DNA from: an uncultured Gammaproteobacteria bacterium
GTDB taxonomy: Bacteria; Patescibacteriota; Microgenomatia; Daviesbacterales; UBA10151
Length of the DNA stretch: 64,000 nt
NCBI GenBank assembly: GCA_964625535.1
Contig: CAZVEX010000002.1
Coordinates: forward strand, 85,559 to 149,558
Direction of reading: 5' to 3'
A program made the translations under genes and the position numbers. This document shows positions 12,623 to 19,834 of this stretch, one piece after another (position 1 is the stretch's first letter; each line of letters opens with the position of its first letter). The notes under the pieces were generated by a model, which was given only the letters and a program-made list of their open reading frames with translations, made no database searches and was not told where the DNA came from.

Positions 12623-14287
12623 TCAAACTTCCACTACCACCGGTAAAATTAGTGGTCTTCTTTCTGTCGTCTGATAAAAGAGATTGCCCAAATCATCCTC
12701 AATTTTTTTACGGATAAACCGCCAGTCCGACCCTTTTTTAACATGCTGCTCTAAACTTCTTATCACTGTTTCCCTAGCATCCTGCAAAAGGTCCTCCGCC
12801 ATATTTTCAAAAACAAAGCCCCGGGAAATAATATCAGGTTCTCCTGCCACTTTACCGGTATGCTGGTCAATCGGCACCACCACCACTACAACTCCTTCCT
12901 CGCTCATTAACCTTCGATCCCGCAAGACCACATGTCCCACATCCCCGATCCCCAATCCGTCAACATAAATATTTTGCAATTCCACTCTGCCGGCTAATTT
13001 CAGATTATCTCTGTTTATTTCTACTACATCCCCTTCTTCCAGTTGTAAAATCTGACTTTTGTCATAACCCATACTCTGAAAAACTTGCGAGAACATTTTT
13101 ATGTGTCTGAAAGTTCCGCCAATAGGTAGCAAGTAGCGGGGTTTTGCCAGATTAACCATCAACTTTAATTCTTCAGAGGCCGCATGGCCGGAAACATGCA
13201 AATCAGAGGTAATGGCAGAATAATAAACATTAGCTCCCAAGCTTGACAATTTATCAATTAAGGCGTTCTGGGCAGATTCTGTGGAAGGAATGGGGTCGGC
13301 CGAAAAAATCACCCCATCTCCTTCCCGCAACTTAATTTGTTTATGTTCGTCATTGGCCACCCGGGAAAGCGCCGAATCTGGTTGACCTTGAGATCCAGCA
13401 ATTAAAACAAGGATCTTTGAGGGAGTAAAAGAGTTTACGGCATCCGGAGCAATCACAATATTTGGCGGGACTTTTAAGTATCCCAGGTTCCTGGCCAGCT
13501 GAAAATTATTTTCAAAGCTTCGACCCACCACTGCCAGTTTCCTGCCTAATTTTTGTGCCACATTGACTGCTTGTTGCATTCTGGAAACATTTGACGAAGT
13601 CATGGTAATAAGCAATCTTCCGGTAGTTTCCAGCGCCGCTTTTTCAAAGGAGGCTTCAATTGATTGCTCCGATCTGTTAAACCCAGGTTTTTCTATTCTT
13701 AAACAGTCAATCAAAAGCAAAAGCACTCCCTCCGTCCCTAAATTTGCCACAGTCCCCACATCAGTCTTCTGACCCGAAACAGGCGTCCAGTCAATCTTAA
13801 AATCAGCCTGATGAATAATCAACCCGACAGGGGTTCTGATGACTATGCCTGTTGAATCCGGAATTGAATGAGAAACCTGGTAAAAAGACACATTAAAACT
13901 ACCCAGACTTAAATCTTGATCAAGCTTAACCTCCACAATCTGATCTTTGGGCAAGCGATGTTCGGAAAATTTACCTTTAATTAATCCTGCTGTCAGTTTT
14001 TGAGCATAGATGGGCACTTGAAGTTGAGGATGAATAAAAGGCAATGCTCCGATATGATCATCGTGCCCGTGCGTGATAATAATACCTCTGATTTTGTCCC
14101 TTTTCTGCCTCAAATAAGATATGTCGGGAATAACCAGATCTACCCCGGGCATAGCCTCGTCAGGAAATCCCACTCCGCAATCAACAATGATGATGTCATT
14201 CCCATATTCATACACATACATATTTTTGGTAACATCACCTACACCTCCAAGAGGAATAAGCTTCAGAGTTGGTTTAAAAGAATTCAT
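12623..14287 (-). CDS. rnj: Ribonuclease J
   Basis: Metallo-beta-lactamase motif HGHDDH, a beta-CASP region and the RNase J C-terminal domain. Length 554 aa. Confidence 0.9.
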   Translation of the reverse strand: MNSFKPTLKLIPLGGVGDVTKNMYVYEYGNDIIIVDCGVGFPDEAMPGVDLVIPDISYLRQKRDKIRGIIITHGHDDHIGALPFIHPQLQVPIYAQKLTAGLIKGKFSEHRLPKDQIVEVKLDQDLSLGSFNVSFYQVSHSIPDSTGIVIRTPVGLIIHQADFKIDWTPVSGQKTDVGTVANLGTEGVLLLLIDCLRIEKPGFNRSEQSIEASFEKAALETTGRLLITMTSSNVSRMQQAVNVAQKLGRKLAVVGRSFENNFQLARNLGYLKVPPNIVIAPDAVNSFTPSKILVLIAGSQGQPDSALSRVANDEHKQIKLREGDGVIFSADPIPSTESAQNALIDKLSSLGANVYYSAITSDLHVSGHAASEELKLMVNLAKPRYLLPIGGTFRHIKMFSQVFQSMGYDKSQILQLEEGDVVEINRDNLKLAGRVELQNIYVDGLGIGDVGHVVLRDRRLMSEEGVVVVVVPIDQHTGKVAGEPDIISRGFVFENMAEDLLQDARETVIRSLEQHVKKGSDWRFIRKKIEDDLGNLFYQTTERRPLILPVVVEV

Positions 14288-15300
14288 AAATACTCTCCCA
14301 GATTCTCACTGGTGATCTTAAATGGTCCTGCCTCCCCTTCCACCAGTTTCCTGGCGATTTTGCGGCAAATTGCCTGCAAGGATCTCTGCAACGATCTAAT
14401 CCCGCCGTCAAAACCCAAAGGCCTTAGGATTTGCGGCCAGATGCCTTCGTCAATAATCAAAAGATTTCTGTCTACCCCCGCCTCATCCAGCGATTTTGGC
14501 AGGAGATAATTTTTGCCAATGATTAGTTTTTCTTCGTCAGAGTATGAAGGCATCTGAATCGGCTCTAATCTGTCCATCACTGCAGTGGCAATATTGCCGG
14601 TATTATTGGCTGTGGCTATAAATAAAACTTGCGACAGATCAAAAGCAAAATCCAGAAAATGATCAACAAAAGCCTGGTTTTGAGCAGGATCTAAAAGCTC
14701 TACCAATACTCCCATGATGCCAACTCTACCCTCCTCCGCTACCCTGTCTATCTCGTCTAAAAGTATCACCGGATTTTTGACTTGGGCATGTTTAATGACT
14801 TTGATAATCTGTCCCGGCTCGGCATCGGGGCGAATTTTGGATTGCCCGCGCAAGCTGGCAGCATCACCCAAACCCCCAAAAGGAATCCTGACAATTTTCC
14901 TACCCAAGCTTTCAGCAATGGAATAGGCAATAGAGGTTTTTCCTGTCCCCACCAATCCTACAAACAGCAGGATCGGGGCATGAAAACCGGCCGGCCCTGG
15001 GCTTTTGGCATGCAAAATTAAAACCGACAGATATTCCAATACTCTGTCTTTCAAAGTCTGCAAACCATAGTGATTTTTATCAAGGATTTCTTTGGCTCTT
15101 TGTAAATCCAAAATGTCCTGGCTTGCTTTGTTAAAAGGCAGGAAAGTAGCAAAATCAATATAGGAAACTAATTTTTCAAATTCAGCTCCTGTTCCCGGGA
15201 ATTTTAGTAAATTAAGTAATTTTTCTTGAACTTCCTGGGGTAAAGAGGCTTGGCTAATCCTTCTTTTGAGGTTTTCCAGTTGTTCTTGGGCAGCATCCAT
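14284..15300 (-). CDS. Lon-like AAA+ ATPase module, without the LAN N-domain and without the protease domain
   Basis: Colinear with the Lon AAA+ region: Walker A (GLVGTGKTS), IRPDAEPGQII, Walker B (PVILLDEIDRV), LLDPAQNQAFVDHFLD, DRLEPIQMPSYSDEEK. The protein ends exactly where the Lon protease domain would begin. The ATG at 15300 has an AGGT ribosome-binding site. The ORF-track extension to 15717 overlaps pnp in another frame and was rejected. Confidence 0.7.
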   Translation of the reverse strand: MDAAQEQLENLKRRISQASLPQEVQEKLLNLLKFPGTGAEFEKLVSYIDFATFLPFNKASQDILDLQRAKEILDKNHYGLQTLKDRVLEYLSVLILHAKSPGPAGFHAPILLFVGLVGTGKTSIAYSIAESLGRKIVRIPFGGLGDAASLRGQSKIRPDAEPGQIIKVIKHAQVKNPVILLDEIDRVAEEGRVGIMGVLVELLDPAQNQAFVDHFLDFAFDLSQVLFIATANNTGNIATAVMDRLEPIQMPSYSDEEKLIIGKNYLLPKSLDEAGVDRNLLIIDEGIWPQILRPLGFDGGIRSLQRSLQAICRKIARKLVEGEAGPFKITSENLGEYL

Positions 15301-15328
15301 TCTGTTACCTATTTTATACGGTAGAAAT

Positions 15329-17605
15329 TTATCTGTCAAAACTTCGGCGGGCAGGCCTGCCTCCGCGGTTTCGGTCAAAACCACCTGAACTACGGCTTGA
15401 TCTACCTCTACTAAACCCTCCGCCAAACCTGGGTCTGGGTCTATTAAAAGGTCCACCGGATCTAAATCCTCCTCCGGACGGCCTCCTAAAACCACCGCCT
15501 CTAGCGGCCCGCGGTCTTTCTCCGGTATCCGGCTTAATGTCTTCACCAAAAAGCATAGACAAAGACACTTTGCCATCCGGGTCAACTCCCTTAACTCTAA
15601 CTTTAACTTCCTGTCCCTCTTGCACAACATCTTCGGGTTTTCCCACAAAACCTGTGGACATTTCCGACACATGAACCAACCCGTCCTTTCCCGGAGCAAT
15701 TTCCACAAAAGCTCCAAAAGGCACCAGGCGAACTACCTTACCCGTAAATTCATCCCCCACATTAACTGTTTTAAACATTCCTTCAATGGCCGCCATGGCC
15801 TGATCCACGCCTTCGGATTTGGTACCTGAAACCATTACCGTGCCGTCATCCTCAACATCAATTTGCGCTCCGGTCTTTGAGATAATACCATTGATGTTTT
15901 TACCTCCCGGCCCGATGAGAAGTCCTATGTTTTCTGGTTTTATATGAAGAATCTCCACTCTTGGGGCATGCGGAGAAAGAGGGCCTGCCGCAGGCACTGC
16001 CTCATTCATCTTTTCTAAAATCTGAAGTCTTGCTTTTTTACCCATTTCCAGGGCTTTTTCAATTACATCAAATGTCAACCCTTCCAGCTTGGTATCCATT
16101 TGAATGGCGCTCACCCCGTTTTTAGTCCCAGCCACCTTAAAGTCCATTTCGCCGTAAAAATCCTCGATAGCTCTCATATCTGTTACCACCTCTGTCTTCC
16201 CTTCATTGGAAAAAAGTCCCATCGCCACTCCTGCTACAGGCTCTCTCAAAGGTACCCCTGCATTTAGTAAGGCTAAAGTTGAAGCGCAAAGAGCAGCCAT
16301 AGAAGTCGAGGCATTGGCTGCCAACACTTCGGATACCACCCTGATGGCATAGGGGAACTGCTCTTGTGGGGGAATCACAGAGTTTAAGGCTTTTTCCGCC
16401 AAAGCCCCATGGCCAATATCGCGCCTCGAGGGCGGACCAATCCTTTTGACCTCACCGACTGAAAAAGGATTAATGCTCATGTTGTAATAGTGCATAAATC
16501 TTTTTTTATCTTCCCCGTACATACCCTCAATGGTTTGAGAAAGGGAAGGCGCGCCCAAAGTCACCACGGATAAAACTTGAGTATCTCCGCGCGCAAACAG
16601 CGCAGACCCGTGAGTCCTGGGCAAAACACCAACTTCCATATTAAGAAGTCTTATTTCATCCATGGCTCTTTTATCAACCCGTTGCCCCTTTTCCAAAACT
16701 ACTTCATGCATAATCTCTTTGGCTACTTTGTCAAAAATGCCGGAGATTATAGTGGGAGTTAAGGTTTCCGCGTATTGCTTTGAGAGTTCTTCCTTAATCC
16801 GGTCGCCTGTTGCTTCATGCCAAGGGTGTTCGTTGTCAAAAAGAGCTTTTTCAATTCTCTCGCGGGTTATTTTACTAACCTCTTTAAATAGCGCTTCTTC
16901 AACTTCTTCGGCCAAATGCGAGTAGGCTTGTTTTTCGCATCCTACCTCTTTGGCAAAATCAGATACTAAATCAAGGATTGGTTGAGTTGCCTTATGCGCT
17001 TCTTTAATGCTTTCTAAAATCAACTTGTCATCAACTTGTTTGGCTTCCGCCTCAATCATGACCACTTTGTCCCCTTTTGAGACAACCACCAGATCCATAT
17101 TGCTTTCCCCGTCCAGATCTTTCTCGCCCATTCTCACCCCGGCAATGGGCCCGTTCCAGGGAATAGATGAGATAGACAAAGCTGCTGAAGCTCCAATCAA
17201 ACCAACCACGTCCGGATCGCTGACCTGATCAATTGACAAAACGGAAATTAAAACCTGCACTTCGTGTTTAAAATCTTTGGGGAAAAGGGGACGGATGGAG
17301 CGGTCTATTAAACGACCTGCTAAAATAGCCTCTTCTGAAGGTTTTGTTTCTCTTTTAATAAATCTGGAGGAAGAGATCCTACCTCCTGCATAATGCTTTT
17401 CCACGAATTCAACCGATAAAGGGAAATAGCCAATATCCTCCTTTAAAGGTTGGGTGGCTACAGTCACCAGAAGGACTGTTTCACCCCACGAAGCTACCAC
17501 TGCAGCATCAGCCTGCAACGCCAGCTTACCGGTTTCCAGTTTAAGCTTTCTGCCATTTAAATCAATCTCTTTGGTAACAACTTTATTCATAAACAATAAA
17601 TACAA
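15329..17605 (-). CDS. pnp: Polyribonucleotide nucleotidyltransferase (PNPase) with a C-terminal RGG-rich tail
   Basis: Two RNase PH domains, a KH domain and an S1 domain, followed by about 65 aa of Arg/Gly-rich tail. The likely start is the internal MNKVVTKEI at 17590. Confidence 0.9.
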   Translation of the reverse strand: MYLLFMNKVVTKEIDLNGRKLKLETGKLALQADAAVVASWGETVLLVTVATQPLKEDIGYFPLSVEFVEKHYAGGRISSSRFIKRETKPSEEAILAGRLIDRSIRPLFPKDFKHEVQVLISVLSIDQVSDPDVVGLIGASAALSISSIPWNGPIAGVRMGEKDLDGESNMDLVVVSKGDKVVMIEAEAKQVDDKLILESIKEAHKATQPILDLVSDFAKEVGCEKQAYSHLAEEVEEALFKEVSKITRERIEKALFDNEHPWHEATGDRIKEELSKQYAETLTPTIISGIFDKVAKEIMHEVVLEKGQRVDKRAMDEIRLLNMEVGVLPRTHGSALFARGDTQVLSVVTLGAPSLSQTIEGMYGEDKKRFMHYYNMSINPFSVGEVKRIGPPSRRDIGHGALAEKALNSVIPPQEQFPYAIRVVSEVLAANASTSMAALCASTLALLNAGVPLREPVAGVAMGLFSNEGKTEVVTDMRAIEDFYGEMDFKVAGTKNGVSAIQMDTKLEGLTFDVIEKALEMGKKARLQILEKMNEAVPAAGPLSPHAPRVEILHIKPENIGLLIGPGGKNINGIISKTGAQIDVEDDGTVMVSGTKSEGVDQAMAAIEGMFKTVNVGDEFTGKVVRLVPFGAFVEIAPGKDGLVHVSEMSTGFVGKPEDVVQEGQEVKVRVKGVDPDGKVSLSMLFGEDIKPDTGERPRAARGGGFRRPSGGGFRSGGPFNRPRPRFGGGFSRGRSSRSSGGFDRNRGGRPARRSFDR

Positions 17606-18080: not shown

Positions 18081-19055
18081 TTACCCTATTGATGTGCCTT
18101 TGAAGATTTTGGGGGTGAGCCATTCGGGTTCCGGAGTTTCGGATACAACCCCCTCTCCTGCCGGTCTTTCTTCCGGAGATGAGGCTGGGGGAGTTGGTTG
18201 AGTGAGAGTCTGTTGGATGATGGGCGTACTTGGTATTAAAGCGCTCAAATCAGGTTGCGGACCTTGAGGTGCGACTTGAACTTGAGGCATGGTCGCAGAC
18301 ACAGCCGGTTTTCTTCCTCCTACCCTAAGACATTGGGCCACTGCCATGTAAGTATCGGCATTAACTTTGGGGTTGGTCAAACTATCTGTTGAGGCAAAAA
18401 TTCCGGAGAGGAGATTGCTGGCCACATCAGCATCCATGGTCAACCCCAAATCCAAAATTAAATTTACCACCATCTCACCAACGGATGAAGCTTGAGTATC
18501 AACCACATTGGTAGAACCAAAACCGGTATTATTTTGATTGTCAATGTTGACTATATGAACGCCTGAGTAGCCTTGGGCATTTTGCCGGTAGATGGAACCA
18601 AGACTATCCAGGTTGGCAGCTCCGATGACAAAAATCAGATCAAAACCGCTGCCCTGATAGCGGGGGACAATCCGGGCCGGTTGAAAAGTTTGACCCGGCA
18701 GGACATGAAAAACCAAATTTAAATTGTTGTTTTCCGCGTACCAGTCCAGTTTTTCCAAGGCAGGAACAGTCCCGTCAGAGGCAGCCACTCCCTCTAAAGT
18801 TAAAGTTAAGTTTCCTCCTTCTGTCTGGGGAAGAGTTTTTTGCACATGGTCTACCCCAAAAAGATGAGCTTGAGCAACCCTCATGCTATCTTCGCAAACT
18901 ACACTGACTTCCTTGCCTTGAGCTTCAAAAATTAAAAATAGCGACAAGGCTGCTGCCAGCCTGTCGGTATCAGCACCCACCGGTAAGGCTATCAAGATAT
19001 TTTTGGCAGATGGCAGGAGATTTTTAAGTTCAACTATTTGTGCGTCGTATTTCAC
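18081..19055 (-). CDS. NrnA-like DHH-family protein with degenerate catalytic motifs and a Pro-rich C-terminal tail
   Basis: Colinear with NrnA motifs I to IV, but DHH is replaced by DNQ (IVNIDNQNNTGFG) and motif I reads ADTD. The DHHA1 domain is replaced by a Pro/Gln-rich tail. Confidence 0.5.
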   Translation of the reverse strand: MKYDAQIVELKNLLPSAKNILIALPVGADTDRLAAALSLFLIFEAQGKEVSVVCEDSMRVAQAHLFGVDHVQKTLPQTEGGNLTLTLEGVAASDGTVPALEKLDWYAENNNLNLVFHVLPGQTFQPARIVPRYQGSGFDLIFVIGAANLDSLGSIYRQNAQGYSGVHIVNIDNQNNTGFGSTNVVDTQASSVGEMVVNLILDLGLTMDADVASNLLSGIFASTDSLTNPKVNADTYMAVAQCLRVGGRKPAVSATMPQVQVAPQGPQPDLSALIPSTPIIQQTLTQPTPPASSPEERPAGEGVVSETPEPEWLTPKIFKGTSIG

Positions 19056-19138: not shown

Positions 19139-19834
19139 TTAGGGTATATTTACTACCGCAGAGCAGTTACTAGGATCAGTCAGGATGTCACCTAGACCTT
19201 GTCCTCCATCACAAATATCCGTTCCTGTCCCATCTCCGCCGAATTCCGGTCCAGCTGTCAAAGTATCATTACCTTCTCCACCATTGATGGTGTCTTCATT
19301 AGTGGTGGCCGGATCAAAATCACCAGCTCCACCTTGTACAATATCGTTGCCTGTTTCTCCATAAAGGGTATCAAGACCTTCATTCCCATCTAAATTATCA
19401 TTATTATTTCCGCCGTAGAGTGTATCATTACCACCTCGACCGGCCAAAATATCATTACCATTCTCTCCGTACAAGATATCATTACCATCTCCTCCGAGTA
19501 AGTTGTCATCATCATTTCCGCCGTACATGGTATCATTGCCTGCCTCACCCATCGCGCTGACAAGAGAATCTTTCCCATCCTGGCCGTAAAGGGTATCACT
19601 GCCGATACCTCCACAAATTAAATCATCGCCTTTACCACCCCAAATAATATCATTTCCGCCCAAACCCGCAATTACATCATTACCATCTGTCCCCACGATG
19701 ACGTCGTTCCCTTCAGTTCCTGCGATAGTAGCGGTTTGACCGACACAGGTAACTGAAGCGCTCACAGGTCCTTGGAAAAAGTATGCCACTATTCCCAAAA
19801 GGAGCAATGCTACAAATATGATTATCTTTTTCAT
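19139..19834 (-). CDS. Secreted RTX-type calcium-binding beta-roll repeat protein
   Basis: Signal peptide followed by about 15 tandem nonapeptide GGxGxDxL/I-type repeats (GNDVIVGTDGNDVIAGLGGNDIIWGGKGDD...). Confidence 0.6.
   Translation of the reverse strand: MKKIIIFVALLLLGIVAYFFQGPVSASVTCVGQTATIAGTEGNDVIVGTDGNDVIAGLGGNDIIWGGKGDDLICGGIGSDTLYGQDGKDSLVSAMGEAGNDTMYGGNDDDNLLGGDGNDILYGENGNDILAGRGGNDTLYGGNNNDNLDGNEGLDTLYGETGNDIVQGGAGDFDPATTNEDTINGGEGNDTLTAGPEFGGDGTGTDICDGGQGLGDILTDPSNCSAVVNIP

Follow-up and report, generated by a model that had tools for sequence, protein, structure and literature searches.

A conserved Lon-type AAA+ ATPase without a protease domain in Microgenomates and other Patescibacteria

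Domain architecture of LonAAA

The gene lonAAA, located at 14284..15300 on the reverse (−) strand of the window (the whole stretch of 64,000 nucleotides of contig CAZVEX010000002.1 analysed here), is an open reading frame (ORF) of 338 codons plus a TGA stop and encodes a Lon-type AAA+ ATPase that has no protease. Judged from its sequence, the product, LonAAA, is the NTD-3H sub-domain of LonA joined to a complete AAA+ module. In alignments and a neighbour-joining tree, this protease-less architecture is fixed across a monophyletic family of the candidate phyla radiation (CPR)/Patescibacteria and is maintained under strong purifying selection. We regard it as reasonably probable that LonAAA, a descendant of the LonA ATPase, is a functional protein that works on its own as a ring hydrolysing ATP for a purpose other than proteolysis.

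Pfam assigned an AAA domain to residues 111–248 of the product and Lon_lid to residues 275–323. The NCBIfam equivalog model for lon, TIGR00763, matched with E=2.8e-91 but only at model positions 251–567 of 795, and the score of 307 bits falls short of the curated whole-protein cut-off of 608 that defines a LonA. The match to NF008053 covers model positions 244–579 of 784, which correspond to E. coli Lon 244–579. LonA chains in the PDB were found with E values of ~1e-72 to 1e-64 and ~40% identity, the AAA+ part alone being matched in every case, and the AAA+ module of LonAAA aligns with that of LonA without large insertions. The equivalent of NTD-3H (residues 1–55; 15136..15300 (−)) corresponds to E. 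coli Lon ~244–300, and the helical lid (the alpha sub-domain, Pfam Lon_lid; residues 252–338; 14287..14547 (−)) ends at Lon 579; the names NTD-3H and AAA+ module follow PMC9569914. The C-terminus thus lies at the "...YL" position of Lon, just ahead of where the protease domain would start.

An AlphaFold2 model of LonAAA (pLDDT 90.3, pTM 0.84) consists of three N-terminal helices (residues 3–17, 22–31, and 39–52) followed by a Rossmann-type alpha/beta domain and a lid of helices. The whole model can be superposed on 6n2i, which comprises E. coli Lon 235–584, with TM-scores of 0.89/0.89 and an rmsd of 2.3 Å. An earlier note on this DNA, made from the letters alone, had described the gene as a stand-alone Lon AAA+ module lacking both the N-terminal and the protease domains and ending where the latter should begin. 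Pfam, NCBIfam, PDB, and tblastn searches agree with this description, and the alignment to Lon hidden Markov models that the note had proposed places the boundaries around the ATPase part only, with the end at Lon 579.

The missing domains were searched for by tblastn using Lon_C from three proteins, one full-length Lon, and the Lon N-domain as queries. No coding sequence for Lon_C or Lon-N was found in the whole 64-kb window, where only the ATPase segment of lonAAA was matched, and none in the 82 related loci, which were covered to 10 kb on either side of the gene; a hidden protease domain was rejected on the basis of these negative results. No Pfam match to PF02190, the N-terminal LON substrate-binding domain, was obtained with the LonAAA product. 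The long coiled-coil helix of LonA is also missing, LonAAA beginning at Lon 244. The frame upstream of the gene contains no stop as far back as a TTG at 15717; this stretch, however, overlaps the 3' end of the polynucleotide phosphorylase (PNPase) gene, pnp, and bears no similarity to Lon-N. The longer ORF starting at TTG 15717 was rejected because it runs over the pnp 3' end and disagrees with the starts of the homologues. On the other side, the gene for RNase J, rnj, starts inside the lonAAA stop codon, in line with the statement in the earlier note that a frameshifted protease domain would not fit there. In other lineages a gap of ~650 nt separates lonAAA from rnj, and a divergent protease domain of ~200 amino acids was considered there; the gap proved to encode a family-4 uracil-DNA glycosylase (UDG). 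The nearest named canonical Lon representatives in the library searched come from Spirochaetota and Clostridiales and not from CPR, which has no bearing on the Lon content of Microgenomates.

Conservation of the shortened form

Relatives of LonAAA were found in 380 species-representative genomes (one genome per species), and the best 80 of these were examined in detail. The sequences from Daviesbacteria share 68–89% identity with the window protein, and those from Gottesman-, Woese-, Levy-, Shapiro-, Ames-, and Roizmanbacteria share 54–61%. All of the best 80 have the same shortened form, with predicted lengths of 324–365 amino acids. In addition, more than 100 clusters at 72–89% identity contain proteins of 334–375 amino acids, nearly all of them 338–350. 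In 82 of 82 loci the ORF ends 0–3 codons past the position of the last residue of the window protein, and nearly every locus has an in-frame stop a short distance ahead of the start, the clear exception being a fused ORF at locus L068 that is discussed below. The check on relatives proposed in the earlier note thus gave a uniform answer, the shortened form being kept in every locus. Across the best 80 species, 105 of 338 positions are invariant in at least 95% of the sequences, and the ratio of non-synonymous to synonymous substitutions (dN/dS) between the window gene and four Daviesbacteria orthologues is 0.08–0.10.

These data bear on the possibility that lonAAA is a pseudogene decaying from a Lon gene or a truncation caused by sequencing or assembly. 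The missing domains are the sole support for this explanation. Against it, the same boundaries recur in 82 independent assemblies, dN/dS is ~0.09, 105 positions are invariant, the catalytic motifs are intact, and rnj begins inside the lonAAA stop codon. We consider the boundaries, the invariant positions, and the dN/dS to refute a remnant or an artefact, whose probability we put close to nil. The "domain-deleted remnant" offered in the earlier note is accordingly abandoned in view of the uniform architecture and family-wide conservation, and its alternative, a functional protein, is the one that fits a conserved, uniform, and intact family.

The family extends beyond Microgenomates. A neighbour-joining tree built from 200 Lon-type AAA+ modules unites the protease-less proteins in a single clade, in which the window sequence sits within the Daviesbacteria branch. 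Subfamilies, none of which has a protease, occur in Candidatus Dojkabacteria/WS6 and in further Patescibacteria, and a whole-library search revealed ~20 more 50%-identity clusters of protease-less Lon-type ATPases with lengths of 340–670 amino acids. The extensions of the distant members were inspected as possible Rosetta-stone clues to function, but were set aside as domain-free, low-complexity tails rich in Q/P or S/N. Of the 150 best representatives, 21 are single-module proteins with the Walker A form G[LVI]xGxGKT, in which a hydrophobic residue replaces the first proline of the Lon Walker A, and 21 of the 21 are without Lon_C and Lon-N. The Walker A variant alone is not diagnostic, because P0188, a Lon with tandem AAA modules, has GLAGTGKT in one module and yet keeps Lon_C. 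The window protein combines all the features of the family, namely NTD-3H and AAA+ only, G[LVI]xGxGKT, the [DE]AEPG loop end, and the absence of Lon_C and Lon-N.

A protein 100% identical to LonAAA, encoded on a 339-kb contig, is deposited at NCBI as "AAA family ATPase [Candidatus Daviesbacteria bacterium]". Many species-representative metagenome-assembled genomes titled "uncultured Gammaproteobacteria bacterium" (L005, L006, L012, L016, and ~30 more) carry the typical Microgenomates locus. One of them is a 615-kb "chromosome", OZ246397.1, and these organism labels look wrong.

Catalytic motifs and pore loop

The residues for ATP binding, hydrolysis, and inter-subunit (arginine-finger) catalysis are all kept in LonAAA. 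The Walker A motif GLVGTGKTS (residues 115–123; 14932..14958 (−)) is a family-specific variant of the Lon motif GPPGVGKTS, and alignment places the Walker B motif LLDEIDR at residues 180–186 (14743..14763 (−)). Sensor-1 Asn232 (14605..14607 (−)), the arginine finger Arg244 (14569..14571 (−)), and sensor-2 Arg302 (14395..14397 (−)) are equivalent to N473, R484, and R542 of E. coli Lon, respectively. These three residues, together with K121 and D182/E183, are invariant in 50 aligned sequences and also across the 80 species. Since the arginine finger, which acts in trans, is kept, we infer that LonAAA forms an oligomeric, ATP-hydrolysing ring.

The pore loop 1 segment, RGQSKIRPDAEPG (residues 151–163; 14812..14850 (−)), is different from that of Lon. 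In the alignment, RGHRRTY[IV]GAMPG of Lon is replaced with RGQS[KR]x[RH]P[DE]AEPG in Microgenomates LonAAA. Arg157 and Pro158 of the window protein occupy the positions of Tyr398 and Ile399 of Lon, so that the aromatic-hydrophobic pair is lost. Most of the Microgenomates orthologues examined have [RH]-P at this site, with an occasional tyrosine. The RGDP segment directly after Walker B is altered as well. The aromatic-hydrophobic pair of Lon grips polypeptides, and Tyr398 is the substrate-gripping residue. Its replacement makes a classical unfoldase role doubtful for Microgenomates LonAAA, and LonAAA is probably not a classical unfoldase, as judged from these loops. Of the "unfoldase/chaperone-like AAA+ protein" suggested in the earlier note, the functional AAA+ part is thus retained, whereas the unfoldase part has become doubtful with the changes in pore loop 1 and RGDP.

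An intact ATPase machinery would also suit a split Lon, in which the ATPase ring docks in trans on a separately encoded peptidase and thereby rebuilds an ATP-dependent protease. The partner would be either an S16 Lon_C protein encoded on its own or a self-compartmentalising protease of another kind, as in the case of ClpX with ClpP. The altered loop does not speak against this, because an "RPRPDAAPG"-type loop is present in the protease-adjacent module of the tandem-AAA Lons P0149 and P0153, and such a loop is therefore compatible with a protease-coupled ring. However, the window and the ±10-kb surroundings of the gene in the 82 loci contain no Lon_C-like sequence, no conserved peptidase neighbour is present in any genomic context examined, the C-terminus ends cleanly or with low-complexity tails, and no docking element was found. 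We therefore judge a split Lon to be distinctly unlikely.

Genomic context and the question of RNA turnover

In the window, lonAAA lies between two genes of RNA metabolism. It starts with the ATG at 15300 and stops with the TGA at 14284–14286, as read from the ORF. The upstream neighbour pnp (15329..17605 (−); Pfam) has its stop at 15329–15331, leaving a gap of 28 nt before the lonAAA ATG, which agrees with the spacing and coordinates given in the earlier note. The RNase J gene (rnj; 12623..14287 (−); Pfam) follows downstream; its ATG and the lonAAA TGA share 4 nt (ATGA), and the earlier statement that RNase J begins 3 nt after lonAAA needs to be corrected to this overlap. An FtsK gene, supported by Pfam, lies further downstream.

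Nearly all of the 82 loci keep the order IF2 - DHH-like - S15 - PNPase - LonAAA - RNase J - FtsK. The arrangement S15-PNPase-LonAAA-(UDG)-RNase J was observed in Daviesbacteria, Gottesman-, Woese-, Levy-, Shapiro-, and Amesbacteria, and in one locus labelled "Nomurabacteria". In most non-Daviesbacteria lineages, the family-4 UDG (~200 amino acids; Pfam UDG) is encoded between LonAAA and rnj. The UDG gene, which is absent from this place in the window, often overlaps the LonAAA stop (e.g., L031:11034-11636, L086:8137-8748, and L087:8029-8556).

Such an order raises the possibility that LonAAA is an accessory of RNA decay, a ring working with RNase J and/or PNPase that might remodel ribonucleoproteins or nucleases or replace a degradosome helicase. 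This role would explain the fixed place between pnp and rnj. The order pnp-LonAAA-rnj across many Microgenomates lineages, the overlap of the lonAAA stop with the rnj start, and the replacement of the pore-loop aromatic residue by arginine or histidine all count in its favour, and nucleic-acid binding is a known property of Lon AAA+ modules. The link to RNA turnover is, however, loosened by several contexts. In Dojkabacteria the order is YidC - Jag - L25 - LonAAA and pnp and rnj are not nearby; rnj is missing in L085; and in L087, where pnp and rnj are gone, UDG is the sole remaining neighbour. FtsK and, in most lineages, UDG are encoded in the same block. The gene order nusA-infB-rpsO-pnp is ancient and widespread, and the LonAAA block looks like an inherited housekeeping string extending it, so the synteny may simply be inherited. 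In addition, the altered pore loop (P-D-A-E) has a net acidic character that disfavours RNA, and the sole ORF in which PNPase and LonAAA are fused, at L068, looks like a misassembly. Because ftsK and UDG are part of the block and the order is lost in Dojkabacteria, we regard the synteny as weak evidence of a functional link and a role in RNA decay as unlikely. The "RNA-turnover gene block" of the earlier note accordingly survives as a conserved synteny within Microgenomates, while the functional link that the term implies is weak.

The fused ORF, L068:7637-10903 of Candidatus Woesebacteria GW2011_GWC1_42_9, is a single ORF of 1088 amino acids comprising PNPase, a UvrA-like P-loop fragment (NLDVEVPLGRLVAVTGVSGSGKSS), and a LonAAA part without its first ~40 residues. 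With the UvrA-like fragment and the missing LonAAA start, it is probably a misassembly or a rearrangement, and it was not used as evidence. In one Microgenomates genome (L002, the same as L009), pairs resembling toxin-antitoxin systems (MazE/Fic, RHH/PIN, and HTH/PIN) are inserted between pnp and LonAAA (L002:6763-7944), and the adjacency of LonAAA and rnj is intact despite the insertion.

Membership in a defence system was also considered and rejected. No match to BrxL (BREX) was found, and PADLOC yielded only weak, generic P-loop matches (IetA, 2e-06; TRIP13, 1e-04). The surroundings of lonAAA consist of housekeeping genes and do not form a defence island.

A promoter-like site and the predicted expression of lonAAA

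A promoter-like sequence, TTGACA-17-TAAAAT, is present at 15311..15339 (−). It matches the consensus and overlaps the pnp stop, and 10 nt separate the end of its -10 box from the ATG of lonAAA. A -10-like box of the form TAnRAT occurs 12–16 nt before the ATG in 36 of 80 loci, compared with 7.5 ± 2.7 in shuffled sequences, and Shine-Dalgarno-like motifs were found upstream of LonAAA in only 8 of 80 loci. This pattern suggests that LonAAA has a promoter of its own and a leaderless or very short-leader mRNA starting just past pnp. The ATGA overlap further suggests that, in Daviesbacteria, LonAAA is translationally coupled to rnj.

Proposed function

In the mechanism we propose, LonAAA would assemble into a Lon-like hexameric ring and hydrolyse ATP, and alone it would be incapable of degrading anything. 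The two loops lining the channel in Lon are rewritten and conserved in the new form, pore loop 1 having [R/H]-Pro in place of Tyr-Ile/Val, followed by Asp/Glu-Ala-Glu. ATP would be spent through this rewritten channel on a remodelling, chaperone-like, or regulatory task. The rewritten channel loops make a ring of this kind likelier than a processive unfoldase. In the source organism, LonAAA would head its own short-leader transcript and would be translationally coupled to RNase J.

Three points weigh against a stand-alone, non-proteolytic ring of this type. The protease domains of LonA contribute to the stability of its ring. An aromatic pore loop 1 is kept in the distant members P0140 (YF), P0141 (FF), and P0147 (F-L), and translocase activity is therefore conceivable for the family as a whole. 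Finally, the promoter call comes from a consensus match alone.

A broader version of the proposal is that, in a large part of the CPR/Patescibacteria, Lon gave rise to an ATPase ring that stands alone, has a re-engineered channel, and fills a non-degradative, probably essential housekeeping role, which in Microgenomates could be a physical partnership with RNase J/PNPase, possibly in genomes from which canonical Lon has been lost. We consider this composite picture doubtful.

Other features of the surrounding genes

The tail of the PNPase past its S1 domain consists of 60 residues rich in arginine and glycine (RGG-like; window ~15329-15520 (−)). RGG-rich pnp 3' ends are also found in the Daviesbacteria loci L006, L008, L010, L014, L016, L017, and L025. 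A protein of 231 amino acids is encoded at 19139-19834 (−), amid the housekeeping string between the DHH-like gene and infB, and it has a signal-peptide-like N-terminus and six calcium-binding repeats of the RTX/hemolysin type. A conserved gene for 324 amino acids at 18081-19055 (−), between rpsO and infB, gave no Pfam match at E<=1e-4. In L087 the equivalent place next to infB is occupied by a gene called DHH, and the product of 18081-19055 may, by its position only, be a divergent NrnA/DHH-like protein.

Significance and comparison with known systems

What defines Lon is the union of an ATPase with a protease in a single chain, and MEROPS follows the protease domain only. The current classes are LonA, LonB, LonBA, and LonC, and all Lons are said to contain both A and P domains (PMC9569914). 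Because both domains are required and MEROPS tracks the protease domain, a protease-less form is invisible to the current classification. Database names for the family members are inconsistent, ranging from "AAA family ATPase" to "ATP-dependent Lon protease" and "Lon protease 1", and metabolic reconstructions of CPR organisms may wrongly credit LonAAA genes as Lon protease. Our analysis describes a conserved, widespread, ancient, and uncharacterised family whose function is so far inferential. LonAAA would be a natural Lon motor that does not destroy its client. As such, it could serve as a clean system for studying the debated protease-independent activities of Lon, such as chaperone-like activity and nucleic-acid binding, and it could reveal how the ultra-small cells of the CPR organise proteostasis and perhaps RNA decay. 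Derivatives of AAA+ proteases that have lost a domain are not unprecedented in principle. A full-text literature search found no description of a protease-less Lon in CPR.

LonAAA resembles LonA (endopeptidase La, MEROPS S16.001; e.g., E. coli Lon and B. subtilis LonA) most closely, sharing the fold and the NTD-3H and AAA+ parts at ~40% identity, with Walker A and B, sensor-1, the arginine finger, sensor-2, and Lon_lid all in place. It differs from LonA in lacking LON_substr_bdg, the coiled-coil helix, the S16 Ser-Lys protease domain, and the Tyr398-Ile/Val pair of the pore loop, and in having GLVGTGKT as its Walker A. The engineered construct 6n2i (E. coli Lon 235–584, PMC8244335) has nearly the same boundaries, residues 1–338 of LonAAA aligning to 4–339 of its chain. 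However, 6n2i is a laboratory truncation of a protease, whereas LonAAA is the natural product of a conserved gene and has altered pore loops.

The tandem-AAA+ Lons (e.g., P0121) share with LonAAA the use of Lon-type AAA+ modules outside the plan of one ATPase and one protease, but they keep a C-terminal Lon_C and fall outside the protease-less clade in the neighbour-joining tree. About 35 of the 150 best library representatives have this architecture, with 2–4 tandem Lon-type AAA+ modules followed by one Lon_C and no Lon N-domain (P0121–P0129, P0133–P0137, P0139, P0142, P0149, P0153, and others). P0121 is a protein of 1113 amino acids from Candidatus Dependentiae, and the protease-adjacent modules of P0149 and P0153 have the non-aromatic pore loops "RPRPDAAPG"/"RSRSDAAPG". 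No description of such stacked-ring (tandem-AAA) Lons was found in the full-text literature search.

ClpX and HslU, which belong to the same HCLR clade as Lon, are likewise single AAA+ rings without a peptidase domain. Their pore loops are aromatic, and each works with a dedicated peptidase (ClpP and HslV, respectively) that is usually encoded adjacently. LonAAA differs in that neither a peptidase partner nor a docking loop was found for it in the loci examined.

Among the other Lon classes, LonB has a membrane anchor, and LonC has a helical hairpin insertion in its AAA+ module (PMC9569914). LonAAA does not belong to LonB, LonBA, or LonC, as it has no P domain and no large insertion in its AAA+ module. 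LonC (MEROPS S16.007) keeps the protease, and its ATPase is inactive (PMC9569914). LonC and LonAAA are alike in that each is a Lon derivative without one of the two Lon activities, but the loss is the opposite one, LonAAA having intact ATPase motifs and no protease.

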